Shown: positions 16,964 through 62,132 of the stretch, in pieces
Layout of the letters: every line of letters begins with the position of its first letter
How positions within the stretch are numbered: position 1 is the stretch's first letter
Origin: Clostridia bacterium
GTDB taxonomy: Bacteria; Bacillota; Clostridia; Christensenellales; Borkfalkiaceae
Assembly (NCBI GenBank): GCA_017536205.1
Contig: JAFXHX010000009.1
Location: forward strand, 1,003-65,002
Length of the DNA stretch: 64,000 bases
Reading direction: 5' to 3'
Notes under the pieces: generated by a model
Told to the model about the DNA's origin: nothing
Database searches by the model: none
The model's input: the letters and a program-made list of their open reading frames with translations, nothing else
Translations under genes and position numbers: made by a program

Positions 16964-17500
16964 CTACGTAGCGTTTTTTAGTTTTTTGTTGAGTTTATTT
17001 GCAAGCGCAGATGCGCAAATCATTTTAATTATATCAAACGGCAAAAAGGTTATTAAAAGCGTAAGAATAACTTTAAGGTTTAGCCCGCCCGTAGTTACAA
17101 CCGAGCACCACGGCGCGCCTATTAGGTAAATTATAACCGTTCCTACAAAAAAGGCTAGTGCGTAACGCCAAAACCCACTTTTGTTTTTGATAATTAGCCC
17201 CGAAACGAGCGCGCATATAGGGTACGCTAATAAATACCCACCAGTAGGGCCTATTAAAGAGTAAAAACCACCTGAAAAGTTTTGAAAAACGGGAACGCCC
17301 ACTGCGCCTATAAAAAGGTAAACTAAAACGGATACGGTTGCTTGAAAGGGCGTTAACACGGCGCTTGCTAAAAATATTATAAAGGTTGCAAGCGAAACGC
17401 TAACCCCGCTTGGTAAAGGCACTGAAAAAGGCGACACAACGCAAATAAGCGCAGTTAAAATTGCCGTTTTTGCAAGCGCAACTGAAGTTGATTTTTTCAT
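16964..17500 (-). CDS. bioY: biotin transporter BioY
   Basis: 178 aa, 5-6 TM, BioY-like sequence. Overlaps the birA stop by 4 nt. Confidence 0.85.
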   Translation of the reverse strand: MKKSTSVALAKTAILTALICVVSPFSVPLPSGVSVSLATFIIFLASAVLTPFQATVSVLVYLFIGAVGVPVFQNFSGGFYSLIGPTGGYLLAYPICALVSGLIIKNKSGFWRYALAFFVGTVIIYLIGAPWCSVVTTGGLNLKVILTLLITFLPFDIIKMICASALANKLNKKLKNAT

Positions 17501-18234
17501 AATAACGTTAAATCTCCCCCGTGCGCCGTTACTACGCCGGTATCCGTTTTTATTAAAAGTTCGCCTAAACCACCTATATCAATAACCGTGCCTAACGTTA
17601 CGTTATTACCAAAAGTAACCGAAACTTTTTTGTTTATAACAAGCGAATTAGCCTTGTATTCGCTTAAAAAATCAAGCGTTGAAAATGCGCTGTTAAAGTT
17701 TGCAATTCCGTTTAAAAGTAAGGCTATAAGACGGTTAATATCAACTAAAAACCCTTCAAGCGCAAGCGAAGTTGCAATATTAGTTAAGTCGTTTGGAAAG
17801 GTTTTTTGGTTTACGTTTAAGCCTATTCCCACAATTATTTTATCTACCTTGCCGTTTGAAATTGAAGTTTCGGTTAAAATGCCTGCAAGTTTTTTGTTTG
17901 ACACGAAAACGTCGTTAACCCACTTGTATGAATACGGAATATTAAACTCTTTTAAAGCGTTACCTATAACGGTTGCAAAGTAAGGGGTTACGAGTGGAAG
18001 TTTATCAGTAGATATATTCGGCTTTATTACAGCGCTTAAATAAATACCACCTTCACTTGATATAAAGTTACGGTTTTTAGTGCCACGCCCGTTTGTTTGG
18101 CTATTTGCAATAACGGCAAAAATATCGCCGTTACTTTTTATATAGTCCATAGTAGAAGTAACGGTTTTTAAAAGGCAAATATTAAGGGGGCTATTAAGCC
18201 CTTTTTTAATTTGTTCTAAACAAGGCGTTTGCAT
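17497..18234 (-). CDS. birA: biotin--[acetyl-CoA-carboxylase] ligase, group I (no N-terminal HTH)
   Basis: GRGTKNRNFISSEGG biotin-binding loop. At 245 aa it is too short to carry the wHTH repressor domain. Confidence 0.85.
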   Translation of the reverse strand: MQTPCLEQIKKGLNSPLNICLLKTVTSTMDYIKSNGDIFAVIANSQTNGRGTKNRNFISSEGGIYLSAVIKPNISTDKLPLVTPYFATVIGNALKEFNIPYSYKWVNDVFVSNKKLAGILTETSISNGKVDKIIVGIGLNVNQKTFPNDLTNIATSLALEGFLVDINRLIALLLNGIANFNSAFSTLDFLSEYKANSLVINKKVSVTFGNNVTLGTVIDIGGLGELLIKTDTGVVTAHGGDLTLL

Positions 18235-18269: not shown

Positions 18270-18403
18270 CGCTTTAAAGTAATTTTGTTTGCCGTAGAAA
18301 GCAATTTAAAAGGGCTCCCGAAAATGTTTTTAGAATAAAAAGATTTTTGGGAAAAAGGAGCAACTGCGATATAGCCCTACCCTTAACACTTTAAGGGTTG
18401 AGA

Positions 18404-18664
18404 GTTATAGCAAGTTGCGACGCAAGCCCGCAGAAACAAGCACAAGCAGGCTCGACAACAAGGGGCACACAACTAACCTTTTTGGTTGTAGAAAGTGGCA
18501 TTTTAAGTCGTTAGAGCCAAGCAAGACAAGGCTCGACGGCAAGGCGTTGGGCGTAATTGACCTTGGTGGTCATTACGGTCACGAATTGACGGCAGTTAAC
18601 GCAGTATTGCGACGGCTATAACGAAATAAAAAGCACCGAAAACGGTGCTTTTTATGTCTTAAAA
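18404..18664 (+). repeat. structured intergenic element E1 (candidate ncRNA or MITE-like element) ending in an intrinsic terminator
   Basis: Positions 18500-18632 match 34693-34826 with 4 mismatches by manual alignment. Hairpins: 18552-18577; terminator GCACCG-aaaa-CGGTGC at 18633-18648 plus a T-run. 8-bp closing pair GTTATAGC (18404) / GCTATAAC (18615). Confidence 0.8.
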
Positions 18665-20041
18665 TTAAAGAAGTATTTTTTCGTTAACGTAACTAATAAC
18701 TTCTTCGACTGACATACGAACTTGTTCCATAGTGTCACGGTCACGAAGGGTTACGGTGCCGTTTTCTAAGGTGTCGAAGTCGATGGTTACACAATAGGGT
18801 GTTCCTATTTCGTCTTGACGGCGATAACGCTTACCGATAGAACCTGCTTCATCGTAAGTAACCATAAAGTATTTAGCAAGTTGTTTGTATATTTCTTTCG
18901 CCTTTTCGCCAAGGTTTTTCTGTAAGGGTAAAACTGCAACTTTATAAGCGGCGATTGCGGGGTGGAAATGCATAACTACTCTGGTATCGCCACCTTCTAA
19001 TTCCTGCTCGTCATACGCTTCGCAAAGGGTTGCAAGCATAAGTCTATCTGCACCGATAGAATATTCGATAACGTAAGGAATATATCTTTCGTTAGTGAAC
19101 GGGTCAAGGTAACCCATTGCTTTGCCAGAATATTCTTGGTGGCGTGAAAGGTCGTAATCGGTACGGTTGTGAATACCGTTAAGTTCAGACCAGCCTATTG
19201 GGAAAAGGTATTGAATATCGCAAGCCGCTTTAGCGTAGTGGGCAAGTTTATCGTGGTCGTGATAACGAAGGTGTTCTTCTTTAAAACCAAGCGCAAGCAA
19301 GAAGTCTTTTGCCGATTTTTTGTAATATTCGTACCACTCACCGTCGGTACCTTCTTTACAGAACCATTGATGTTCCATTTGTTCAAACTCGATAGTTCTA
19401 AAAATGAAGTTACCGGGGGTAATTTCGTTTCTAAACGCCTTACCCACTTGAGCAATACCGAAAGGCACTTTAGCACGGGTGGTGCGTTGAACGTTTAAAA
19501 AGTTAACGAACTCGCCTTGCGCAGTTTCGGGGCGAAGGTATATAACGTTAGTAGACTCGTCGGTTACGCCACGCGAAGTTTGGAACATAAGGTTAAAGTT
19601 ACGAATAGGCGTCCAGTTAAACTTACCGCAGTTAGGGCAAGCAACTTTGTGCTCGTCGATATACGCTTGCATTTCTTCTTGCGTGAGTTTATCGGGGTTA
19701 ACTTTACCCTTGCTGTGGTTTTCAATAAGGTTATCTGCCCTTTGGCGAGTTTTACATTCCTTACAGTCCATTTTAGGGTCGCTAAACGAAGCGGTGTGAC
19801 CAGACGCATCCCAAACGCGAGCGTTCATTAAAATAGCGGCGTCTACACCGAAACTGTTTTCGCTTTCTTGAACGAACTTTTTCCACCAAGCGCGTTTAAT
19901 GTTGTTTTTAACTTCAACGCCAACGGGGCCGTAGTCCCAAGTGTTGCCCATACCGCCGTATATTTCGCTACCGGGGTAGATTATACCGCGAAGTTTGCAA
20001 AGGTTAACGATTTTATCCATAGTAACTGCCTTTTTGTCCAT
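18665..20041 (-). CDS. glyQS: glycine--tRNA ligase (homodimeric class II)
   Basis: 458 aa with a typical GlyRS N-terminus ([20 protein letters not shown]). SD GAGGTG. Promoter TTGACA-17-TAAAAT. Confidence 0.95.
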
Positions 20042-33656: not shown

Positions 33657-34631
33657 CTACTTTGTAAAAAAATTGCTTATTAAAAACCATAAAGCAACAA
33701 GCGCCCCCACCCAACCTATTATAGGATAAACCGTTGAAATTAAGCGTGAAAAACCTATAAAACCTAGCCCGCAAGCACATAAAATCGTTGTAATTTTAGG
33801 CGTTATTTTATTAGTTTTAAGTAGCGCTCCAAGGTGAGAAGAAGCAAGCGAAAAGGCGTTTAAAAGCATAACTATACTTATAAAAATATACAGTGGTAAG
33901 CAAAGCGATTTTATTGCGCACACAAGTGGAAGTTCGGCGTTTAAACACCCTTTAAAACACAATAGCAAAACGGCAACGAGTAGCGATAAAATTAAAAGTA
34001 TTAGCCCCATAGTTATAAGTGAACACGCCTTTTTAAAAGGCGGATTATACGCTTTGTTTTGCTTTTTTAAAACCGATATAGCGCACGCCGAATTAAAGCC
34101 CGCATAAGTGAGTGCCGAAACAAAAACGTTTGGTAAAAACGGGCTTATAGGGTGGTTATTTAAAGTTAAATCTACTTTAAATCCGTTTTTATAAAACGCT
34201 AAAAACGCACAAAATAAAAGCCCTATAAGTAACACGGGAAGTGAAAGTTTTAAAGTTTTAGTTACTGCACTTAACGGCTTAAACGAGTAAAGTAAAATTA
34301 AAATTGAAAAAATAGCCGAGCAAACGTTTTTATTAAAGCCCGTTATATAACTTAACAGTTCGCCAGAGCCCGATATTGTTACGCTTATAATTAAAAAGGA
34401 AAGCGTTTTTTCTAGAATTGAAAGTGAAAAGTTTGTCGTTTTATTTTTAGTTTGAAAACGGGTTATTATAGCGCCACTAAACAAAACGGTTAAAGTGCAG
34501 TTTAAAACTAGCCCCCACACCCAACCTTTATAAGATAAGAAAAAAAGGGCGGTTTCTTTGCCGGACAAAAACCCCACCCCAACAAAAACGAACGCCGTTA
34601 AAAATGCTAAACGTAAAACCCCACTTTGCAT
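33657..34631 (-). CDS. YkvI-like polytopic membrane protein
   Basis: 324 aa, about 10 TM. N-terminal GVGFLSGKETALFF resembles the YkvI family motif. Confidence 0.5.
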   Translation of the reverse strand: MQSGVLRLAFLTAFVFVGVGFLSGKETALFFLSYKGWVWGLVLNCTLTVLFSGAIITRFQTKNKTTNFSLSILEKTLSFLIISVTISGSGELLSYITGFNKNVCSAIFSILILLYSFKPLSAVTKTLKLSLPVLLIGLLFCAFLAFYKNGFKVDLTLNNHPISPFLPNVFVSALTYAGFNSACAISVLKKQNKAYNPPFKKACSLITMGLILLILSLLVAVLLLCFKGCLNAELPLVCAIKSLCLPLYIFISIVMLLNAFSLASSHLGALLKTNKITPKITTILCACGLGFIGFSRLISTVYPIIGWVGALVALWFLISNFFTK

Positions 34632-34688
34632 ATAAAACTATATGCCCACGCATTAACTATTATTCTACCCCATCCACGCCGTATTAAC

Positions 34689-34864
34689 TGATATTTTAAG
34701 CCGTTAGAGCCGAGCAAGACAAGGCTCGACGGCAAGGCGTTGGGCGTAATTGACCTTTTTGGTCATTACGGTCACGAATTGACGGCAGTTAACGCAGTAT
34801 TGCGACGGCTATAACGAAATAAAAAAGCGTGGCATCTAGCCACGCTTTTTTGTGTCTTAAAACT
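34689..34864 (+). repeat. structured intergenic element E2 with its own terminator
   Basis: Near-identical to the E1 core. Its terminator has a completely different stem (GCGTGGC-atcta-GCCACGC, 34827-34845) at the same relative position. Confidence 0.8.
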
Positions 34865-34867
34865 TTT

Positions 34868-35150
34868 AAGCCCGTAGAAACAAGTTAGGCGAGGCTCGCA
34901 ATTTTTGTTAGTTGTAGAAAGTGATATTTTAAGACGTTAGAAGCGAGCGAGAGAAGGCTCGCAATTTTTGTTGGTTGTAGAAAGTGATATTTTAAGACGT
35001 TAGAAGCGAGCGAGAGAAGGCTCGCGAAAAGGTACGGACACGATTGACCTTTGTGGTCATCGGGGTCGTAACTTTGAAGCAGAAACGCACTATCGCGACG
35101 CTTATAACGAAATAAAAGCACCGAAAACGGTGCTTTTATTGTACTTAAAA
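34868..35150 (+). repeat. structured intergenic element E3 (diverged paralogue of E1/E2) with terminator
   Basis: Shares the 5' AAGCCCGYAGAAACAAG with E1, the GTTGTAGAAAGTG..ATTTTAAG module, hairpins with altered but still paired stems, and the terminator GCACCG-aaaa-CGGTGC (35118-35133). Confidence 0.8.
34893..35018 (+). repeat. 63-nt tandem duplication (2 units, 1 mismatch) inside E3
   Basis: GGCTCGCAATTTTTGTT(A/G)GTTGTAGAAAGTGATATTTTAAGACGTTAGAAGCGAGCGAGAGAA occurs twice, followed by a third GGCTCGC at 35019. Confidence 0.9.
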
Positions 35151-36665
35151 TTAGAGGATTTCCAAGTTCTTTTTAAATATACGCCTGAAATCTGGTTGAG
35201 AAGAAAGCGCGTCTTTAATTTCTAAAGTTGCATCGCTGGATAAAACGGTTTTCATAATAACGGAATCACCCAAAACGTCACAACTTAAACTTTCAACGCT
35301 ACTGCTCATAGACCTATCAAGGCTAACGGCTATGCGAAGCATAATGCCGAGTTTTCTTATAAGATCAACGTCTTCTTCACTGATGAACTCTTTATATTTA
35401 ATAAGGTCTGCCATAGAAAAATCGTCGTTTTTATAATTTGATACGACAAGCGCGGCAAGAACTATTTCACGTTGACTAATTCCGTATAAACTAGAGTTTA
35501 AAATAAGGTAACTAGTGTGCTTTTGATAATCGTAATACTTAATACTAGTTCCCGCATCGTGAAGATACGCAGCAACCTTTAATATTTTAAGGGCTTGGCG
35601 TGGGAACTTGTGAAGAACGTGCATTTGCTTAAAAAGTTGAACTGAAAGGTTAACTACTTGTTCGCAGTGCTTTTCGTTACACTTGTAATATTTTACTAGC
35701 GTTTGAAGGCTGTAAGTTAAAACGTCGCTAATAGGTTTTTCAACCGTCATAGGAACGGCGTAGTTAAACATAATGCCTTCACGCAAGCCACAAGCCGATA
35801 TAGTCATTTTTTCAAAGCCGAGATATTTTATAAATGCGTGAGCAACTGCAAACGCAGAAGGTAAAAGGTCGGCACGCTTTGACGAAATGCCCTTTATGCG
35901 CTTTTTCTTATCAAGGTCGAGCGATTTAAGCATTTCGTAAACGGAAACAAACTCTTCAGTTTCGACAACGTAGTTATGAATAAGCGGAAGTTGACACTTC
36001 TTTTTCATTTTAACTATTTTGCAAAGGTTTCTAAAACTACCACCACAACCTATAAGTTGAGTTTCGGGGTCGATTTCTTTAAGCCACTCTATTTGAGATA
36101 ATTGTTCGGTTATAAACTCTTCTATCTTTTTAGCCTGTTCTTCGCCCGAAAGATTATCGCTTGCAAAAAGTTCGGTAAGGGTTACCGCGCCGAACGGAAG
36201 CGTTTCAAAGTGAAGAAGATTGCGCCTATTGTAGTAAATAACCTTGGTTGAGCCACCACCTATTTCTATAATGAGCCCCTTAGAAACGTCCATAGTGTTT
36301 ATAACGCCACGATAAACGTAAGTTGCTTCTTCTTCGGCGGTTAATACTTTAAGTTTAATACCCGTTGTTGCAACTATTTCGTCAAGGAAACTGCGTTGAT
36401 TTTTCGCACGGCGAACTGCCGCAGTTGCTACGGCTATAATTCTTTCTATTTCGTAAGCATCGCAAAGTTTTCTAAACATTTTAAGGGTTTTAATAGTCTC
36501 TGCCACGCGTGAAGGTTGCAAAAACCCGTCCCTTTCCATATCTTGACCTAAGCGAACGCTTTCTTTTAACTGGTCTATAACGACAAAGTGCCCGTCGCCT
36601 AACATTTCGACGATGACGAGCCTTGCGGTATTAGAACCTAAATCGATAATTCCTATTCTTTCCAC
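35151..36665 (-). CDS. Ppx/GppA family exopolyphosphatase / pppGpp phosphohydrolase with HD domain
   Basis: IIDLGSNTARLV and GGGS motifs, C-terminal HD region (YLHDAG). GTG start with a GAGG SD. Confidence 0.88.
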   Translation of the reverse strand: MERIGIIDLGSNTARLVIVEMLGDGHFVVIDQLKESVRLGQDMERDGFLQPSRVAETIKTLKMFRKLCDAYEIERIIAVATAAVRRAKNQRSFLDEIVATTGIKLKVLTAEEEATYVYRGVINTMDVSKGLIIEIGGGSTKVIYYNRRNLLHFETLPFGAVTLTELFASDNLSGEEQAKKIEEFITEQLSQIEWLKEIDPETQLIGCGGSFRNLCKIVKMKKKCQLPLIHNYVVETEEFVSVYEMLKSLDLDKKKRIKGISSKRADLLPSAFAVAHAFIKYLGFEKMTISACGLREGIMFNYAVPMTVEKPISDVLTYSLQTLVKYYKCNEKHCEQVVNLSVQLFKQMHVLHKFPRQALKILKVAAYLHDAGTSIKYYDYQKHTSYLILNSSLYGISQREIVLAALVVSNYKNDDFSMADLIKYKEFISEEDVDLIRKLGIMLRIAVSLDRSMSSSVESLSCDVLGDSVIMKTVLSSDATLEIKDALSSQPDFRRIFKKNLEIL

Positions 36666-36804: not shown

Positions 36805-37194
36805 TTATGCGCTATATTTTTTAAGTTTTTTGGCTATGGTTGGAGATAAAAATTGAACTACCGAGAGCGCAACTAAAAACACGCCGAACGCACGCTTTAA
36901 AACGCCTGCGTTTATTATTGAAGATAGCACCGAGCCACCTATTGCAAATAAAACGGCGGGAACTATAACGAAAAGTATTCCTTTTAGGTTTACTAGTTTG
37001 TTTTTAAAGTGAAGTATTAAAGAGACTATTGCCATAGGCAAAAACGATATTAAGTTTAGCCCCTGCGCACCGAGTTGCGAAACGGATAAAAATATAGTTA
37101 GAACGGGAATTAAAATAGTTCCGCCACCCATACCCATGCCACCAAGCACGCCAGACAGTGCGCTTGCAATAAAAAACCAAACGTAATTAAGCAT
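36805..37194 (-). CDS. TauE/SafE (TSUP) family half-size membrane protein, second half
   Basis: 129 aa, 4 TM. Gly-rich GGMGMGGG motif at the start of TM1. Confidence 0.7.
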   Translation of the reverse strand: MLNYVWFFIASALSGVLGGMGMGGGTILIPVLTIFLSVSQLGAQGLNLISFLPMAIVSLILHFKNKLVNLKGILFVIVPAVLFAIGGSVLSSIINAGVLKRAFGVFLVALSVVQFLSPTIAKKLKKYSA

Positions 37195-37205
37195 ATGTAA
37201 AAAAA

Positions 37206-37574
37206 TTAGCCTATTATCATTTTAACGCCCGCAACGAGCATAACTACCGCAAATATTTTTGCAAGTGCGCTGGGCTTTATTTTTTTAAGAAGTAGCGCGC
37301 CGACAACACCGCCGACCGTTACCCCAACGGCAACCACTATTAGCGTTATAATTTCCACGTTAAACGAGCCACTTATAAAGTAGGTTACAACGCTAACTGC
37401 AGTTACGGGCAAAATAACGGCTATAGCCGTTGCGTGCGAAACTTTTTCGTTAAATCCTAAAATTAAAGTGAGCATAGGAACTACAATCATTCCACCGCCA
37501 CCACCGAAAAATCCGTTTACAAAACCCGTGACCGAGCCTATTAAAATAAGTAAAGCAATTTTCTTTTTGGACAT
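37206..37574 (-). CDS. TauE/SafE (TSUP) family half-size membrane protein, first half
   Basis: 122 aa from the ATG at 37574 (MSKKKIALL). 4 TM. GFFGGGGG motif. TACAAT -10 lies 6 nt upstream of the ATG. Confidence 0.7.
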   Translation of the reverse strand: MSKKKIALLILIGSVTGFVNGFFGGGGGMIVVPMLTLILGFNEKVSHATAIAVILPVTAVSVVTYFISGSFNVEIITLIVVAVGVTVGGVVGALLLKKIKPSALAKIFAVVMLVAGVKMIIG

Positions 37575-37803
37575 ACTTATATTGTAGTCAGTTTTTAAAA
37601 AATATTGCACCTTCCAGCCTTGAAAAGCAAAAAATTAAGTTCAATTTGCGAAAACGGCGTGTAATTTTGGCGATTTTGCTCTACAAAATTAAAAAATAGG
37701 GCTTGAAGTATTGATTTTTTGAAAAAAATGCTTTATACTTATTTAGAATAAATAAACAAAGTGGGCGCGCGTATATGCTCGCGATTATAAATACGAGGGA
37801 CTT

Positions 37804-43566: not shown

Positions 43567-43842
43567 AAATAAAACCTATGAGAAAGAGTAAGTAGAAATC
43601 GTGCGTTTTTGCAAAGAGAGCCACCGTTTGGTGTAAGTGTGGCGTAAAACCCGTTTTTGAATGGACTTTCGAGGGCGAACGGAACGGCTTTAAGCCAAGT
43701 ATGTAAGACGGAGTGTGGCTCTCTAGTAAACAAAGGTCTGCGTATGTAGTACGCAAAAAAGTGGGCGCAAAATGCGCCAAAACGGGTGGCACCACGGTTA
43801 ACAATCGTCCCGAAAAGCGTAAGCGCTTTTCGGGTTTTTTAT
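43567..43842 (+). promoter_or_regulatory. T-box riboswitch leader, Trp specifier (UGG)
   Basis: AGAGA/AGTA stem I elements. Specifier context GAATGGA (TGG at 43662-43664). T-box sequence AAACGGGTGGCACCACGG (43779-43797). Terminator CCCGAAAAGCG/CGCTTTTCGGG plus T6 (43809-43840). Confidence 0.85.
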
Positions 43843-43854
43843 TTAGGAGATAGT

Positions 43855-45222
43855 ATGCAAAAAGAAATACCTTACAAGATTTATCTTGAAGAAAACGAAA
43901 TGCCAAAAAGTTGGATGAACTTAAGGGCTTATATGAAAGAAAAGCCTGCACCCCTTCTTAACGCGCAGACTTTACAGCCCATGACTGAAGATGAACTTTC
44001 AAAAGTTTTTTGCCGTGAACTTGTAAAACAAGAACTCGACGATACTTCAAAGTTTATTCTTATTCCAGAAGAAGTTCAAGACTTTTATAAAATGTATCGC
44101 CCTGCACCCCTCGTTAGGGCTTATTGCTTAGAAAAGGCGTTAGGAACTCCCGCTAAAATATACTATAAGTTTGAAGGCAACAACACGTCTGGCTCGCACA
44201 AACTCAATTCGGCAATAGCGCAAGCGTATTACGCCAAAGAACAAGGCTTAAAAGGCGTTACCACCGAAACGGGCGCAGGTCAATGGGGAACTGCTCTTTC
44301 TATGGCTTGCTCGTACTTTGGGCTTGACTGCAAGGTGTTTATGGTTAAATGTTCTTACGAGCAAAAACCGTTTAGGCGTGAAGTTATGCGTACTTATGGT
44401 GCAAACGTAACCCCCTCACCTTCAACTTTAACCGAAGTTGGCAAAAAAATACTTGCCGAGCACCCCGGCACTAACGGCAGTTTAGGTTGTGCTATTAGCG
44501 AGGCAGTTGAAACTGCAGGCAAACTTGATGGTTACCGTTACGTTTTAGGTAGCGTTTTAAACCAAGTTTTACTTCACCAGTCTGTTATAGGTTTAGAAAC
44601 CAAAACGGCAATGGATAAGTACGGCATTAAGCCCGACGTTATTATAGGTTGCGCAGGTGGCGGTAGTAACCTTGGCGGTTTAATTACCCCGTTTATGGCA
44701 GAAAAACTTCAAGGTAAAGAAGATTACGAGTTTATTGCAGTTGAACCCGTATCTTGCCCGTCGCTTACTCGTGGCGCTTACGCATACGACTATTGCGACA
44801 CAGGCGCCGTTTGCCCCCTTTCTAAAATGAAAACGCTTGGCAGTAACTATATTCCCGCAGCAAGCCACGCAGGTGGATTAAGGTACCACGGTATGACTTC
44901 AACGCTTTCTGAACTTTACGATAAAGGCTATATGAAGGCAGTTTCGGTAAAACAAACTGAAGTATTTAAAGCGGCAGAACAGTTTGCAAGGGTTGAGGGA
45001 ACGCTCCCTGCGCCCGAATCTGCACACGCTATAAAAGTTGCAATAGACGAAGCGCTTAAATGCAAAGAAACGGGCGAAGAAAAAACCATACTTTTCGGGC
45101 TTACGGGCACGGGCTACTTTGATATGTACGCATACCAGCGTTATCACGACGGGGAAATGACAGATTATATTCCTAGTGACGAAGAAATTGAATTAGCGCT
45201 TAAAAAATTACCAAAAGTGTAA
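43855..45222 (+). CDS. TrpB2-type tryptophan synthase beta-like PLP enzyme
   Basis: GSHKLNSA PLP-lysine motif and about 455 aa, typical of TrpB2. The ATG at 43855 has a GGAGA SD. The track start at 43786 would overlap the T-box terminator. Confidence 0.85.
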   Translation: MQKEIPYKIYLEENEMPKSWMNLRAYMKEKPAPLLNAQTLQPMTEDELSKVFCRELVKQELDDTSKFILIPEEVQDFYKMYRPAPLVRAYCLEKALGTPAKIYYKFEGNNTSGSHKLNSAIAQAYYAKEQGLKGVTTETGAGQWGTALSMACSYFGLDCKVFMVKCSYEQKPFRREVMRTYGANVTPSPSTLTEVGKKILAEHPGTNGSLGCAISEAVETAGKLDGYRYVLGSVLNQVLLHQSVIGLETKTAMDKYGIKPDVIIGCAGGGSNLGGLITPFMAEKLQGKEDYEFIAVEPVSCPSLTRGAYAYDYCDTGAVCPLSKMKTLGSNYIPAASHAGGLRYHGMTSTLSELYDKGYMKAVSVKQTEVFKAAEQFARVEGTLPAPESAHAIKVAIDEALKCKETGEEKTILFGLTGTGYFDMYAYQRYHDGEMTDYIPSDEEIELALKKLPKV

Positions 45223-56443: not shown

Positions 56444-57230
56444 AATAAATCATAATGTCTAAATAATCAACTATTTTTTCTTTTACAACTTGCACCGTAT
56501 ATTCATTTAAAAACTTAGCGTTTTTAACGTTTCGGCAGTCGTACTTGCAATCTTCTTCGCTTACGTATTCAATAGTAATAGTTAGCGGAAGTTCCATTTT
56601 TATGGGTTTTATTTGGCCACGTTTTTTATAACCTTTTGAAACTGCGTTATAAATGCTATTAAGCGCTTCTTCTTCGCTAAAACAAGTTGCGCTATCACGG
56701 CTATTTGCAATTTTAACTACTGCTGTTTCAAGGCCGTTATAGAACGATTTTGCTTCTTCGCAAGCGGCTTTATCGCCACTTGCTGCAACGCAAGGCACGT
56801 TATACACACCTGCATACACGCCCATTTGCGCTGTTTCACCCACCTTAATTCCGTTATAGTACCACCCTTTGATGGCTTCCCATAATTGAGTATGGTCGAA
56901 AAACGCATTTTCGGTTTTTGCCATTGCGTGCGTGCCTATCATAACGAAAGCATCAATCTCGTTCATATAGGGAGTAAGTTCCCAAGTAGGCAGTTGCACG
57001 GCACGAGAATCAAGCATACCTTTTATAAAGTTTTTGCCTGAAGCGTGCCCATCAACAACGTAAACCTTATCGGCACCACTATCAAATAGTGCACTAACTG
57101 CAACGTTTGTTTCTTTCATTAAACGCTCGGTTGCAAGTTTATATCCGTTAGACGTTTCGTCTATAACCATTTGCATATTAGAAACGTTAGAAACGCCTTC
57201 TAAATCGGTAATAATTAATGCGCTAGCCAT
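56442..57230 (-). CDS. M55 family metallopeptidase (D-aminopeptidase DppA-like)
   Basis: N-terminal ITDLEGVSNV and overall Peptidase_M55-like pattern. 262 aa. Confidence 0.6.
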   Translation of the reverse strand: MASALIITDLEGVSNVSNMQMVIDETSNGYKLATERLMKETNVAVSALFDSGADKVYVVDGHASGKNFIKGMLDSRAVQLPTWELTPYMNEIDAFVMIGTHAMAKTENAFFDHTQLWEAIKGWYYNGIKVGETAQMGVYAGVYNVPCVAASGDKAACEEAKSFYNGLETAVVKIANSRDSATCFSEEEALNSIYNAVSKGYKKRGQIKPIKMELPLTITIEYVSEEDCKYDCRNVKNAKFLNEYTVQVVKEKIVDYLDIMIY

Positions 57231-57232
57231 TA

Positions 57233-58582
57233 TTATTTACTCTCTTGTTGGTTAGCAGCGTTTTCAGTACCGTGCCATCTACCACCTTGTGCCTTATCAA
57301 CGTCACCTTCAAGAAGTTGTTCGTAGTTTTCGGCAACTTTTCTAAATGCTTTTGAATAAGCGTCGATAATTTCTTTATTAAACTTTTTAAACCAAGGAGC
57401 AGATACGCAATATTTCTTTTCAGATGGGTTAACGGCTTCGTCGTCTTTTCTAACGTCACGGTCGTTGAACGCAATACGGGTTGGCTTACCATTGTTGAAT
57501 AAGTCGAATTCTTTAAAGAACTTGTGGTTGTGTAAGCAGAAGTTTGCGCCTTCCCAAGCACCGAAAGTGCCACTAAACTCTGCAGTTAACGCTTCGCAGA
57601 AACGCTTTGCAGATAAACCACCAAACTTTTCAGGATAGTAAGCAAAGTGTGGAAGGTAATAACCACCCATGTGCGAGCCTTCTTCACGGTTAGGACGAAG
57701 TGGCTTTAAGCCTTCGATATCGGCAAGTGAATCGTAGAAATAGTCCATTGCCTTTCTAATTTCAGCAGTACGTTCGTCAAAGTATTTGAGTTGACCTCTT
57801 GCAAGAACTGAAGATACTTGGTTTGCCCTACCTTTGCAACCACCTAAACCGATGTGGTAGTAACCTTTAATTTCTTCGGCTTCAATAATGTTTTCGGGGC
57901 TATTTTTACCATAGTGACCAAATGCTAACGCACGTTCGTAAAGTCTTCTATCGTCGGTAACAACCATACCAAGTTCGCCTGCAGCAAATACTTTCATACT
58001 CATCATACTCATAGCGGCGATGTGACCAAACGTACCAACTTTTTTGCCTTTGTATAATGAACCGTGTGCGTGCGAGCAGTCTTCAATAACGTAAAGGTTG
58101 TGCTTGTTAGCAATTTCCATAATTCTATCCATATCGCAAGGATAGCCAAGGTAGTGAACTACAACGATTGCCTTAGTTCTTGGAGTAATGCACCTTTCAA
58201 GGTCGTCTGGGTCCATAGAAAGCATATCATTAATGTTGCAGAATACTGCCGATGCGCCAAAGTTAGCCGCTTGCGAAACGCTACCCCAGTAAGTTTTGGT
58301 GGGGCAAATAATTTCGTCGCCAATACCAAGACCGATGGCGAACATTGCTGCAGTTATCGACATAGTACCGTTGGTGTATGCGCAAGCGTACTTTCTGCCA
58401 ATCCATTCAGCGAATTCACTTTCGAACTTTTCAGTTATATCTTCGTAAGAGAACTTGTTAGCCTTAACGACTTCAACAACGTTATCTATATCTTCTTGGG
58501 TGATAATGGGCCACTTAAACATTTCCTCGGGCGCTTTTTCAGTAACAACAGGCGTACCGCCTAAAAGTGCTAATTTTTCCAT
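57233..58582 (-). CDS. DegT/DnrJ/EryC1/StrS family PLP aminotransferase, copy 1
   Basis: LALLGG..P N-terminus, PLP-lysine context SMMSMKVFAAGELG, 449 aa. Confidence 0.82.
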   Translation of the reverse strand: MEKLALLGGTPVVTEKAPEEMFKWPIITQEDIDNVVEVVKANKFSYEDITEKFESEFAEWIGRKYACAYTNGTMSITAAMFAIGLGIGDEIICPTKTYWGSVSQAANFGASAVFCNINDMLSMDPDDLERCITPRTKAIVVVHYLGYPCDMDRIMEIANKHNLYVIEDCSHAHGSLYKGKKVGTFGHIAAMSMMSMKVFAAGELGMVVTDDRRLYERALAFGHYGKNSPENIIEAEEIKGYYHIGLGGCKGRANQVSSVLARGQLKYFDERTAEIRKAMDYFYDSLADIEGLKPLRPNREEGSHMGGYYLPHFAYYPEKFGGLSAKRFCEALTAEFSGTFGAWEGANFCLHNHKFFKEFDLFNNGKPTRIAFNDRDVRKDDEAVNPSEKKYCVSAPWFKKFNKEIIDAYSKAFRKVAENYEQLLEGDVDKAQGGRWHGTENAANQQESK

Positions 58583-58594
58583 ATTTCTCTCCTA

Positions 58595-59509
58595 TTATTC
58601 TTCAATATTTAATAACTTCATCGCGTTGCCACGAACGAATTTGTAGTAATTTTCTTCGCTTATGTACTTGTCTTCTACCATACGGGTAAGGAACTCGTCA
58701 TACTCGAAGGGGTGAACGTTTGTTGCAGCGCAAACGTCTAAACCGAAAAGTACTCTATCAGAGAACTCTTCAATAAACCTTGCAGCGTGGTCTTTATCAC
58801 GCATTAACGCGCCCATGCCACTACCTGCAGACATATCGCAGTAAAGGTTGGGAAGTTCACGAAGCATTTCGGTTACTCTGCCAACGCCCTTTATGGGGGT
58901 AAGTGGCCAACCAAGCCTTATCTCGTCGTCACAGTCGCCAGATATTTCTGCCCAGAAAGTTTGCGAGTGACCAAGTATTTTAAGGTCGGGGTGCTTCTTC
59001 ATCATTTTTTCTAAACGGGGAAGACCTAAATCATCTCTAATTCCGTAGTAACCATATTTATCTTTAATGGTTGCAACGTGAATAGTTACGGGCATATCGC
59101 ACTTAGCACAATGATAAAAAAGGTTATCCATTAAGGGGTCGTCAATAGGCATATGAGCCGTAAGTTCACCAAGACCTTTTGCGCCTAAGTTTTTATAAAA
59201 CATAAGTTGTTCAGACAAATTAGCGTCTGGCCTGTTGCCGTGCGCCCTTGGGTCGACGTTACAAAACCACATAAACCTATCGGGGTGCTTGTCTGAAAGC
59301 AATTTCGCTTCTTGGTTAGTAAGCTGATAAGAGTGAACTTCGGGCGAAACGAGTGGTAAAAGTAAACCTTTTTCAATATTGAGCTTGTCGTATATTGCTA
59401 AAAGTTCATCATCTTGAATCATAGGTGCTAACGAGTTAACCCCGTCTGGACACAAGTGTTTGTACGGTGTAACGTGTGCGTGTATATCAATCTTTTTAAC
59501 TTGCTTCAT
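58595..59509 (-). CDS. amidohydrolase family protein, paralogue 1
   Basis: DIHAH metal motif. 304 aa. SD AAAGGAG. Confidence 0.75.
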   Translation of the reverse strand: MKQVKKIDIHAHVTPYKHLCPDGVNSLAPMIQDDELLAIYDKLNIEKGLLLPLVSPEVHSYQLTNQEAKLLSDKHPDRFMWFCNVDPRAHGNRPDANLSEQLMFYKNLGAKGLGELTAHMPIDDPLMDNLFYHCAKCDMPVTIHVATIKDKYGYYGIRDDLGLPRLEKMMKKHPDLKILGHSQTFWAEISGDCDDEIRLGWPLTPIKGVGRVTEMLRELPNLYCDMSAGSGMGALMRDKDHAARFIEEFSDRVLFGLDVCAATNVHPFEYDEFLTRMVEDKYISEENYYKFVRGNAMKLLNIEE

Positions 59510-59534
59510 AGTTTTCTCCTTTTTACCTACAAAT

Positions 59535-59598
59535 ATTATAGCATTACTAGAAAATATATCAATGGAATATTTTGCTACCTTGTAGCACTATATTGCTA
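59535..59598 (-). promoter_or_regulatory. promoter TTGATA-16-TATAAT plus two 14-nt direct repeats TAGCAA(T/A)ATA.. spaced 21 bp (candidate AraC-type operator)
   Basis: Sense strand reads TAGCAATATAGTGCTAcaagGTAGCAAAATATTCCATTGATA... 36 of 40 nt are identical to 62093-62132, at the same distance from the start codon. Confidence 0.6.
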
Positions 59599-59705
59599 TT
59601 TATTACTATTATATATAGTAATAAGGTTATTATTGTTTTAAAAATAGGGGTAAAACTCCACTTTTACATTAAACTTTATATAGCTTCACTTTTTTTAATA
59701 AAATT

Positions 59706-59736
59706 AAAAAGAACCGATAAAAATCGGTTCTTTTTT
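59706..59736 (-). terminator. intrinsic terminator between the two cassette copies
   Basis: GAACCGAT-aaaa-ATCGGTTC with T-runs. Confidence 0.8.
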
Positions 59737-59755
59737 CGTTTTAGTTAAACGCTAT

Positions 59756-61111
59756 TTATTTTTTCTTTTTTTGTTGGTTAGCAGCGTTTTCAGTACCGTG
59801 CCATCTACCACCTTGTTCTTTATCTATGTCACCTTCAAGAAGTTGTTCGTAGTTTTCAGCAACCTTTCTATAAACTGCAACGTAAGCATCAATACGTTCT
59901 TTATCAAACTTTTTAAACCAAGGAACTGAAATACAATATTTAGTGTTTGATTTATTGATTGATTCGTCAAGCTCACGAACGTCACGGTCAGCAAACTCTA
60001 TACGGGTTGGCTTACCGGTGTTGTATAAGTCGAACGTTTTGAAGAATTCGTGATTATGTAAGCAGAAGTTTGCGCCTTCCCAAGAGAAGAATGCACCGTT
60101 AAACTCTGCTCTTAAAGCTTCACAGAAACGCTTTGCAGATAAACCCTTGAATTCATCGGGATAATAAGCAAATTGTGGGCAATAGTAACCACCCATATGT
60201 GAACCTTCTGCTTCGTTGCAACGAAGGGGCTTTAAGCCTTTAATATCTGCAAGTGAATCGAAGAAGTAGTTCATTGCCTTTCTAATTTCAGCAGAACGTT
60301 CGTCGAAGTGTTTAAGTTGACCTCTAGCGAGCGCTGAAGAAACTTGGTTTGCTCTACCTTTGCAACCACCTAAACCGATGTGATAGTAACCTTTAATTTC
60401 ATCTGCAACTAGAATGTTTTGTTCGTTGTTAAGGTCGTAGTGACCAAACGCTAATGCACGTTCGTAAAGTCTTCTATCGTCGGTAACAACCATACCAAGT
60501 TCGCCTGCAGCAAATACTTTCATACTCATCATACTCATAGCGGCGATGTGACCGAAAGTACCAACTTTTTTGCCTTTGTATAATGAACCGTGTGCGTGCG
60601 AGCAGTCTTCAATAACGTAAAGGTTGTGCTTGTTAGCAATTTCCATAATTCTATCCATATCGCAAGGATAGCCGTGATAGTGAACTACTACGATTGCTTT
60701 AGTTCTTGGAGAGATTAAACGCTCTAAGTCGTCCGGGTCCATAGAAAGCATATCGTTGATGTTGCAGAATACTGCCGAAGCACCAAAGTTAATTGCTTGC
60801 GAAACGCTACCCCAGTAAGTTTTGGTGGGGCAAATAATTTCGTCGCCAATACCAAGACCGATAGCGAACATTGCTGCAGTTATCGACATAGTACCGTTAG
60901 TGTATGCGCAAGCGTACTTTCTGCCAATCCACTCAGCAAATTCATCTTCGAACTTTTTGGTAATGTCCTTACCCGAAAACTTGTTGTTTTCAACGATATC
61001 CATAACTGCATCTTTATCTTCTTGCGTTATGATGGGCCATCTAAAGATTTCTTTATCGGTAGCTAATTCTTGAAAGCTAGGACTGCCACCTAAGAGTGCT
61101 AATTTTTCCAT
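59756..61111 (-). CDS. DegT/DnrJ/EryC1/StrS family PLP aminotransferase, copy 2
   Basis: Paralogue of 57233-58582 with the same motifs. 451 aa. Confidence 0.82.
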   Translation of the reverse strand: MEKLALLGGSPSFQELATDKEIFRWPIITQEDKDAVMDIVENNKFSGKDITKKFEDEFAEWIGRKYACAYTNGTMSITAAMFAIGLGIGDEIICPTKTYWGSVSQAINFGASAVFCNINDMLSMDPDDLERLISPRTKAIVVVHYHGYPCDMDRIMEIANKHNLYVIEDCSHAHGSLYKGKKVGTFGHIAAMSMMSMKVFAAGELGMVVTDDRRLYERALAFGHYDLNNEQNILVADEIKGYYHIGLGGCKGRANQVSSALARGQLKHFDERSAEIRKAMNYFFDSLADIKGLKPLRCNEAEGSHMGGYYCPQFAYYPDEFKGLSAKRFCEALRAEFNGAFFSWEGANFCLHNHEFFKTFDLYNTGKPTRIEFADRDVRELDESINKSNTKYCISVPWFKKFDKERIDAYVAVYRKVAENYEQLLEGDIDKEQGGRWHGTENAANQQKKKK

Positions 61112-61130
61112 ATTTTTTATCTCCTATTTA

Positions 61131-62042
61131 TTATTCAATATTTAATAGTTTAATCGCGTTGCCACGAACAAACTTATAATAATTTTCTTCGCTTATATAC
61201 TTGTCTTCTACCATACGGGTAAGGAACTCTTCATACCTGTATTGATGAGTGTTAGAAGGTGCGCAAACGTCTAAACCGAAAAGCACTCTGTCAGAGAACT
61301 CTTCAATAAACCTTGCAGCGTATTCTTTATCGCGCATTAACGCGTTAAGACCACTGCCTGCAGAAAGGTCGCAGTAAAGGTTGGGAAGTTCACGAAGCAT
61401 TTTTACGATTTTACCGTCGCCTTCAACTTTGCTGTTCGGGTAAATAAACCTAGTTTCTTCGGTAACGTCGTCACCAAGTTCAGACCAAAACATTTGTGAG
61501 TGACCAAGTATTTTAAGGTCGGGGTGCTTATTCATCATTTTTTCTAAGCGTGGAAGATGCAAATCGTCTTTAATGCCGTAGTAACCGTATTGACTGCTCA
61601 TAGGCGCAATGTGAATAGTTACGGGCATATCGCACTTAGCACAATGATAAAAGAAGTTATCCATTAAAGGGTCGTCTGCAGGAATATTAGCGGTTACTTC
61701 GCCAACGCCTTTAGCGCCTAAACCCTTAAAGAACATAAGTTGCTCAGATAGTTCTGCCTTTGGGTTGTGGCCGTAAGCCCTTGGGTCTACGTTACAAAAC
61801 CAAACGAACCTATCAGGGTGCTTATCTGAAAGGAGTTTCGCCTCTGCACTCGTCGTTACGTACGAGTGATATTCAGGGGAAACAAGTGGTAATAAAACGC
61901 CTTTTTCAATATTGAGTTCGTCGTAAATTGCAATAAGTTCGTTATCGTCAACCATAGTGACTTTTGAAAGCATTGCGTTAGGACATAAGTGCTTATAAGG
62001 TGTAATGTGTGCGTGAATGTCTATTTTCTTAACTAGTTTCAT
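61131..62042 (-). CDS. amidohydrolase family protein, paralogue 2
   Basis: DIHAH motif. I prefer the ATG at 62042 (MKLVKKIDIHAH) with an AAGGAG SD. Confidence 0.75.
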   Translation of the reverse strand: MKLVKKIDIHAHITPYKHLCPNAMLSKVTMVDDNELIAIYDELNIEKGVLLPLVSPEYHSYVTTSAEAKLLSDKHPDRFVWFCNVDPRAYGHNPKAELSEQLMFFKGLGAKGVGEVTANIPADDPLMDNFFYHCAKCDMPVTIHIAPMSSQYGYYGIKDDLHLPRLEKMMNKHPDLKILGHSQMFWSELGDDVTEETRFIYPNSKVEGDGKIVKMLRELPNLYCDLSAGSGLNALMRDKEYAARFIEEFSDRVLFGLDVCAPSNTHQYRYEEFLTRMVEDKYISEENYYKFVRGNAIKLLNIE

Positions 62043-62067
62043 AACCCACTCCTTGTTGTCTATAATA

Positions 62068-62132
62068 ATTATAGACATTACTTAAATATATGTCAATGGA
62101 ATATTTTGCTACGTTTTAGCACTATATTGCTA
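62068..62132 (-). promoter_or_regulatory. promoter TTGACA-17-TATAAT plus duplicated direct-repeat operator
   Basis: Sense strand reads TAGCAATATAGTGCTAaaacGTAGCAAAATATTCCATTGACA-17-TATAAT. Confidence 0.6.

Follow-up and report, generated by a model that had tools for sequence, protein, structure and literature searches.

bcr1, the Group A repeat of the Bacillus cereus group, is a non-autonomous interspersed repeat of about 155 bp whose fold is kept by compensatory changes and whose distribution is not conserved between close strains, according to PMC3184786, which summarises Okstad 2004 and Klevan 2007. In REPINs, which are REP doublets, conserved ends in inverted order flank a spacer that changes in a compensating manner, giving a long hairpin; they are extragenic, occur in tandem arrays and persist within lineages (PMC3116915). 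Meanwhile, the pneumococcal BOX, RUP and SPRITE repeats have tightly folded predicted RNAs, are enriched downstream of coding sequences and are oriented in a way that mirrors coding bias, BOX being modular with tandem sub-units and SPRITE resembling a terminator (PMC3049150).

Here we describe a family of repeats from uncultured Christensenellales-like gut Clostridia, represented by three full copies (E1, E2 and E3) in the window, that is, in the whole 64-kb stretch of DNA analysed. The family is previously undescribed, a literature search for an earlier description having returned none; among known repeats it most resembles bcr1, REPINs and BOX/SPRITE, from which it is set apart by its fixed antisense orientation, its junction with stop codons and, in the genome of the window, its built-in terminator. 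In our reading, E1 is a copy of an interspersed repeat that is structured and mobile but non-autonomous, broadly comparable to MITEs, REPINs and Bacillus bcr1; we give this reading a probability of roughly 70%.

The likeness to each of these systems is partial. As bcr1 is presented in PMC3184786, the E1 family shares with it a Firmicute host, non-autonomy, a patchy distribution between close relatives and compensatory changes, whereas the single long hairpin, the absence of a consistent duplication, the fixed orientation and the stop-codon junction are unlike bcr1, and the two have no sequence similarity. With REPINs the family has in common tandem arrays and a hairpin whose conserved, inverted ends enclose compensatory changes, while the two REP palindromes, the flanked single-copy RAYT and the mainly proteobacterial distribution of REPINs were not found in it, and its asymmetric leader and stop-codon placement are unlike theirs. 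BOX, RUP and SPRITE are likewise small, folded, interspersed repeats of a Firmicute found near gene 3' ends; they are unrelated in sequence and are not reported to abut stops at a fixed nucleotide, whereas the E1 family folds on the strand antisense to its host gene, and its terminator, an internal side-branch, is present in one lineage only. Tourist-type (IS5-PIF-Harbinger) MITEs are short elements with AT-rich ends, terminal inverted repeats and a 3-bp TAA/TTA target. That target would be compatible with a putative duplication of the stop codon in the E1 family, which differs from Tourist-type elements in its fixed orientation, in the selection on its interior structure and in the lack of a parent IS in the window and the annotated loci. 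Integron attC sites also resemble it, being imperfect hairpins of 60-140 nt with a folded single strand, orientation-specific recombination and basal GTT/AAC boxes. We rejected this assignment: the R'' box RYYYAAC of attC belongs to its 5' strand and the R' box GTTRRRY to its 3' strand, an order that the E1 family reverses (GTTAGAA on the 5' strand, TTATAAC on the 3' strand; 5' CGTTAGAA ... TTATAACG 3'), and the family has neither cassettes nor a nearby integrase.

A first-pass annotation, made from the letters of the window alone, had taken E1 for the third copy of a repeated element lying among unrelated genes, and this description holds. Other copies occur in several genomes, the window contains exactly three full copies according to a covariance-model scan run without filters, and the neighbours of E1 (glyQS and birA) are unrelated to those of E2 and E3, a ppx-like gene and a 324-aa ORF (33657-34631) without Pfam or NCBIfam match. 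Direct comparison of E1 (18500-18632) with E2 (34693-34825) over 133 nt reproduces the four mismatches it had counted, at 18508, 18519, 18565 and 18566, the last two falling in the apical loop (TTGGT versus TTTTT), as it had also noted; in a repeat search of the window, the match covers 145 nt at 94% identity (18488-18632 against 34681-34825). E3 (34989-35118) is 73-74% identical to E1 and E2. The strings said to be shared by E1 and E3 are also present, namely AAGCCCGCAGAAACAAG at 18424-18440 in E1, with its counterpart AAGCCCGTAGAAACAAG at 34868 in the E3 region, and the GGCTCG...GTTGTAGAAAGTG module in both regions.

The similarity among the window copies extends well beyond the terminator and is unevenly distributed. 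E1 and E2 are 96.8% identical in the hairpin and 67% in the terminator and tail, as against 73% and 90%, respectively, for E1 and E3, the stem of the terminator embedded in E3 being identical to that of E1. The window copies are mosaics, which suggests recombination or gene conversion between copies; the terminators and tails compared are those at 18626-18664, 34819-34862 and 35112-35150. In the array behind ppx, E2 lies on the side away from the gene and does not itself abut any. It is separated from E3 by two 63-nt modules, each consisting of the 5' arm up to GGCTCG and a linker that holds a degenerate apical-loop remnant (TTTTTGTTGGTTGT and AGAAAGTGATA), and the terminus of E3 (CTTAAAA, 35144-35150) abuts the ppx-like stop (TTA, 35151-35153). 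The features of both loci are collected in the table.

Table. Coordinates of the repeat copies, their parts and the flanking genes in the 64-kb window.
Feature	Position	Strand	Basis or remark
birA, ligase-only	17497-18234	-	flanks E1
Distal stub, leader-like: TAATTTTGTTTGCC-GTAGAAAG-CAATTTAAAAGGGC	18280-18315	+	sequence; junction comparison with empty alleles
Decayed filler	18316-18423	+	small hairpin CCCTTAA..TTAAGGG (18380-18397) and arm remnants
Arm remnants in filler: GTTATAGC; TTGCGACGC	18404-18411; 18415-18423	+	sequence
Truncated older copy, 5' half only (AAGCCCGCAGAAAC...GGCTCG...CTAACC-TTTTT-GGTTGT)	18424-18489	+	local alignment to the L017 copy; repeat search
Linker AGAAAGTGGC	18490-18499	+	makes the TAGAAA hexamer with the preceding GT
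E1 main hairpin	18500-18625	+	covariance-model match, 143 bits; consensus structure, covariation, strand test
Outer 5' strand ATTTTAAG	18500-18507	+	pairs with the outer 3' strand of the E1 terminus
Outer closure ATTTTAAG / CTTAAAA	18500-18507 / 18658-18664	+	conserved, covarying
Closing helix CGTTAGAGCC / GGCTATAACG	18509-18518 / 18614-18623	+	conserved, covarying
Conserved internal loop AAGGCTCG opposite GCAGTTAAC	18529-18536 / ~18593-18601	+	consensus structure
Apical hairpin TTGACC-TTGGT-GGTCA	~18557-18573	+	consensus structure
Intrinsic terminator within the 3' strand of the outer stem	18626-18655	bidirectional by sequence	terminator scan
Retained terminus GTCTTAAAA	18656-18664	+	outer 3' strand; abuts the glyQS stop (TTA on +, 18665-18667)
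glyQS	18665-20041	-	flanks E1
324-aa ORF	33657-34631	-	next to E2
E2, full copy	34693-34862	+	hairpin 34693-34818; own terminator 34821-34851; terminus CTTAAAA 34856-34862
Two 63-nt truncated modules	34864-34988	+	81% identical to each other
E3, full copy of a different subtype	34989-35150	+	compensatory changes relative to E1 and E2
ppx-like gene	35151-36665	-	flanks the E2/E3 array

The window has further features of note. On the - strand, a promoter-like pair (TTGTCT, 18 nt, TAAAAT) in the 5' arm of E1 (18529-18500) and E2 (34722-34693) points outward in the gene sense; it occurs only in the GCAAGACAAGG subtype, scores barely above shuffle expectation and, in E2, could drive the 324-aa ORF, which otherwise stands behind the E2 terminator. 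At 36805-37610 (- strand), a TauE/SafE-family exporter is present as two adjacent half-size ORFs, of which the upstream one corresponds to the C-terminal and the downstream one to the N-terminal half of the Pfam profile; this could represent a split or permuted arrangement or a half-transporter pair. Positions 57230-62132 hold a tandem duplication of about 2.5 kb with two paralogous pairs of DegT/DnrJ-type aminotransferase and Amidohydro_2 genes at 78-94% DNA identity, with similar hairpins upstream of each pair.

Altogether, 28 full copies were found across the window, five Clostridia/Christensenellaceae MAGs and gut metagenomes. A pattern derived from the three window copies matched 9 sites in five MAGs labelled Clostridia or Christensenellaceae, which come from goat, yak, sheep and human gut, and a second one, in which the apical hairpin was optional, matched 10 metagenome contigs. 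The covariance model confirmed the pattern copies and added one divergent copy, while contigs chosen by their GlyRS homologs, with no sequence pattern, supplied more copies in two related lineages; most copies were nevertheless found by window-derived patterns, and the sample is biased to close relatives. Several copies stand at contig ends, as expected of a multi-copy repeat. No match to the repeat was returned by blastn against phage and plasmid collections, and Rfam 15 at gathering thresholds reports only a T-box and tRNA in the window, both away from the copies, with only terminator-driven sub-threshold matches at E<=10 on both loci. The T-box leader (43569-43815, + strand; 94.4 bits, gathering score 93) runs into a 478-aa ORF (43786-45222).

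The repeats measure about 130-165 nt, and the unit of about 130 nt forms one long irregular hairpin of 43 pairs (RNAalifold), usually with a short leader ahead of it. In 23 copies, 95% of the cells are paired and 27 pairs are changed on both sides, with a covariation score of 0.413 as against 0.14 in shuffles, none of 500 reaching it, and at most 0.10 in slid registers; with all 28 copies, the values are 94.2% of cells, 31 pairs with compensatory changes and a score of 0.448. The invariant parts are a terminal stem (TTTTAAG-n-CGTTAG... / ...TATAACG-n-CTTAAAA), an internal loop (AAGGCUCG opposite CAGnnAAC, represented by AAGGCTCG in E1) and an apical hairpin (ACC-UUnnU-GGU), and the helices between them vary by compensatory change. 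The terminal inverted repeats TTTTAAGnCGTTAGAAAC / GTTTATAACGnCTTAAAA, about 18 bp with one G.A mismatch, are kept in 23 copies, and the leader lies outside them on one side only. These data show that the hairpin structure is under selection. They also led us to reject a coding region or small ORF, since indels of 1-2 nt separate the copies and substitutions are paired across the helix rather than placed at third codon positions.

The two strands of the hairpin are not equivalent. Cells with G.U or U.G outnumber those with A.C or C.A by 28 to 1 (41 to 8 with decayed or divergent copies counted in), 17 of the 23 copies share one G.U, the conserved G.A mismatch on the + strand would be a C.U mismatch on the other, and the + strand folds 6-10 kcal/mol more stably. 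Thus, the selected fold is that of the + strand, which is antisense to the neighbouring gene.

At E1, the inserted block spans 18280-18664, decayed upstream modules included. The first-pass annotation had placed the element at 18285-18664, with the correct 3' end and a start slightly inside the block, which begins at about 18280; its view of a degenerate module at about 18285-18315 as a sign of decayed tandem units is borne out by the decayed modules that occupy the upstream part of the block (18280-18489). The TAATT(T)GTTTRG motif of the distal stub also ends the leader in five loci of relatives (L005, L011, L012, L014 and L018), and TTAAAG stands at both edges of the block (18274-18279 and 18665-18670), where it equals the last codon and stop of the empty alleles. 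The filler between stub and half-copy gave no match above noise in the covariance-model scan. The half-copy has the apical subtype CTAACC/GGTTGT, which is not that of E1 itself. An 8-bp pairing of GTTATAGC (18404-18411) with GCTATAAC (18615-18622), previously proposed to close the structure, is not conserved, and the true closure is formed by 18509-18518 and 18614-18623 together with the outer stem. GTTATAGC is the leftover 5' arm of a decayed copy, and its resemblance to the 5' arm CGTTAGAGCC explains why it is complementary to 18615-18622, in the 3' arm.

Placement relative to genes is strikingly regular. Of 24 gene-proximal copies, about 20 have their 3' end placed precisely at the stop codon of the host, and all 22 copies that have a 3' neighbour face it convergently, on the opposite strand. 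In 11 copies, the junction reads stop/TTTTAAG in the gene sense (the slash marking the boundary), the stops being mostly TAA, with TGA in L010 and TAG in L012. In about 10 copies, the element's own TAA serves as the host stop (…TTT TAA G, GAT TAA G and similar), and L016 reads TTT AAG TCG TTA TAA, so that the protein ends in the element-encoded FKSL*. The exceptions to abutment include a 3-nt gap in L017 and a terminator in between in L008. Relatives show the ...CGGCTTAAAA/TTA junction as in the window, where E1 and E3 read …CTATAACG, AAAT-terminator-AT, GTCTTAAAA/TTA; both obey the junction rule once their terminator is counted as part of the element. The first-pass annotation, whose view of E1 as a repeat otherwise stands, missed three traits: the internal terminator, the single orientation and the junction with stop codons.

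The hosts of these copies are unrelated and include GlyRS, Ppx, Obg, DnaJ, YebC, FTHFS, TrmL, an ABC transporter and kinases, among others. Filled and empty alleles encode GlyRS of equal length, which implies insertion right after the native stop, with no truncation. Since the empty spacers contain up to 8 other TAA and 8 TTA sites, the choice of the stop codon is non-random, whether by targeting or by selection; it could reflect selection rather than targeting, and we know of no transposition mechanism that predicts exact placement at stop codons. In L013, two copies (104-232 and 1662-1792) enclose a 449-aa AAE-type transporter-like membrane gene, the sole gene flanked in this way, one at the gene's own stop and the other, which belongs to the stop of the next gene, just upstream of the membrane gene's start, so that consecutive co-oriented genes can each carry a copy.

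Comparison of orthologous glyQS-birA regions, suggested by the first-pass annotation as a check, revealed sites without the element. The compact order glyQS-stop-terminator-birA is found empty in four lineages (L024, L031, L032-34 and L035) with 87-90% identical GlyRS, whereas the window and the P0003 lineage carry the element at the 3' end of glyQS. P0003 is closest to the empty P0012 (94%), and the GlyRS of the window is about 89% identical to all others, so that two independent gains at glyQS are the most parsimonious history. The region is therefore not simply conserved by vertical descent, and the near-identity of distant copies, already ascribed to recent mobility or gene conversion, is accompanied by presence/absence and copy number differences and by mosaic copies. 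The GlyRS homolog at L036 (4001-6109, GCA_029782595.1) is called as 702 aa rather than about 458 aa, and that locus has no copy of the element.

Copy number differs even between L021 and L023, which have identical GlyRS, yet one copy in one case and three in the other, with gene-proximal copies 71% identical; both keep the native terminator (loop GATTTTT, covarying stems) distal to their one to three copies. A correspondence between the second copy of L021 and the sole copy of L023 was considered and set aside as weakly supported (77% versus 71% identity). Truncated and internally deleted units stand on the gene-distal side of arrays, and because it is mainly the distal copies that are truncated, we infer that the newest copy is probably the gene-proximal one. 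In the P0014 species (L033 1-480 and L032 1-340, reverse strand), units are joined head to tail without a linker (…CGGCTTAAAA/CTTTAAGACCGTAG…) in an array of at least five units of two alternating subtypes that runs off the contig end.

The conserved loops and covarying stems of the folded + strand are typical of functional RNAs, and E1 could instead belong to a multi-copy small RNA gene, in which a + strand unit would comprise a leader promoter, a hairpin RNA of about 130 nt and, in the window, its own terminator. Such an RNA might bind a protein through its conserved loops or act as an antisense partner of mRNA 3' ends that bear its complement, roles that are compatible with mobility. The intrinsic terminator follows all three window copies, even E2, which abuts no gene; in the E1 fold, it (A-tract, GCACCG-AAAA-CGGTGC at 18633-18648, T-tract) is a side branch of a three-way junction and would stop - strand transcription of glyQS as well as any transcription of the element from the + strand. 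Most copies of relatives have no terminator after them and would read antisense into the host gene, and in the window the outer 3' strand, which lies beyond the terminator and hence outside such an RNA, is conserved nonetheless. A -10-like hexamer (TTCAAT, TACAAA, TAGAAA, TAATAT) precedes the hairpin by 6-7 nt in nearly all units (23 upstream flanks); it is a poor match, often without the key A at position 2, and the spacing of the upstream TTGTTTRG is not fixed. A promoter scan found no sigma-70 consensus promoter on the + strand, and an ECF-type or sigma-70 promoter in the linker was rejected on the inconsistent spacings and the empty scan. Linker-less head-to-tail arrays and the dispensability of copies at orthologous sites also argue against a small RNA gene, which we consider unlikely, though still credible.

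Mobilisation of a classical MITE by a DDE transposase, either IS5-type with a 3-bp TAA/TTA target or IS630-type with a TA target, would account for the terminal inverted repeats, the hairpin being their long form, and for a non-autonomous element at sites polymorphic for its presence. CTTTAA stands at both edges of the window block, and TAA occurs at both junctions in the five loci of relatives listed above, where the distal end can be defined as …AAACAAWW, followed by TAA and then by an A-tract and a terminator or RBS that differ between loci. This distal TAA (5-6 loci) could have arisen by 3-bp duplication of the stop codon; the trinucleotide is, however, common in such DNA, and a general k-mer test for target-site duplication on 19 loci was negative but for one chance-level match. 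A leader on only one side makes the unit asymmetric, and neither its compensatory interior helices nor its wobble strand bias is required by a DDE mechanism; besides, orientation is fixed in 22 of 22 copies, the stop codon was chosen over the many TAA and TTA sites of an empty spacer, and TGA and TAG stops are used too. No transposase, recombinase or RT is encoded in the 64-kb window, and no IS with matching ends was seen there or in the annotated loci. We consider a DDE-moved MITE improbable.

If E1 were REPIN-like, moved in the form of single-stranded DNA by the product of a single-copy RAYT/IS200-type HUH transposase gene, it would share with REPINs the long imperfect hairpin with conserved ends and a compensatory middle, the tandem arrays, the lineage-specific terminal sequences and the inheritance within a narrow clade (PMC3116915). 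The arms lack the short GC-rich palindrome with a conserved GTAG/CGTC-type tag that makes a REP: no internal palindrome is conserved in them, an arm-internal hairpin occurs only in some window copies, and GTAG is present in the window linker only. No RAYT was found in the window, and the annotated loci of relatives contain no transposase, RAYT included. In 21 of 22 loci the folding strand shows negative GC skew, which would place it off the exposed lagging-strand template, and folding as single-stranded DNA of that template was rejected on this basis, although gene orientation confounds the skew. The leader is asymmetric, and to our knowledge REPINs are not known at stop codons, so that we regard a REPIN-like origin as very unlikely.

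Equally doubtful is a gene-sense cis element of the 3' UTR (a stabiliser, RNase III site, attenuator or termination-coupled switch) whose placement would reflect its function. In relatives, the order gene-stop-element-leader-terminator puts the element within the host mRNA, and, with the stop exactly abutted, a ribosome terminating there would be able to unfold the hairpin at its base; BOX, ERIC and REP have cis roles of this kind (PMC3049150). Read in the gene sense, however, the wobbles become A.C mismatches (28 to 1) and the G.A becomes C.U, meaning that the gene-sense fold is not the preserved one. In the window, moreover, a terminator stands between host gene and hairpin, and orthologous genes do without the element. 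Still other readings were rejected, namely a CRISPR-like array (the whole 63-nt module is conserved and there are no spacers), type III antitoxin repeats or a retron ncRNA (no downstream toxin or RT gene) and a riboswitch (the downstream gene is convergent).

Under the preferred reading of E1 as a mobile structured repeat, a trans-encoded enzyme would recognise the invariant ends and loops of the folded strand, as RNA or, with less likelihood, as single-stranded DNA. New copies would go in next to the stop codon and displace older copies, which would then decay. In the window lineage, a bidirectional intrinsic terminator would have been gained inside the outer stem, and each copy would now supply the terminator of its host (glyQS, ppx) in place of the native one. 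A more specific proposal, which we hold to be improbable, is a mobile unit that homes to translation stops and is inserted 3' of an in-frame TAA, TGA or TAG, always antisense, through an RNA-level or strand-specific intermediate. If true, such a unit could supply the host with its stop codon and, in the window lineage, its terminator, amounting to a self-spreading "gene-end cassette"; we know of no transposon that reads a stop codon as a targeting landmark.

Small structured repeats are common in well-studied bacteria and almost uncharted in uncultured gut Clostridia, where they break assemblies. The E1 family offers a clean comparative case, in which strong covariation and a clear strand signal come together with stacked arrays and with orthologous sites that are filled in some lineages and empty in others. 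If its placement results from targeting, it points to an undescribed insertion mechanism, and if it results from selection, it constitutes a natural experiment on what the 3' end of a gene tolerates. The element sometimes donates the stop codon and the last residues of its host (…F*, …FKSL*), and annotation of such genes should expect element-derived C-terminal codons and terminators.
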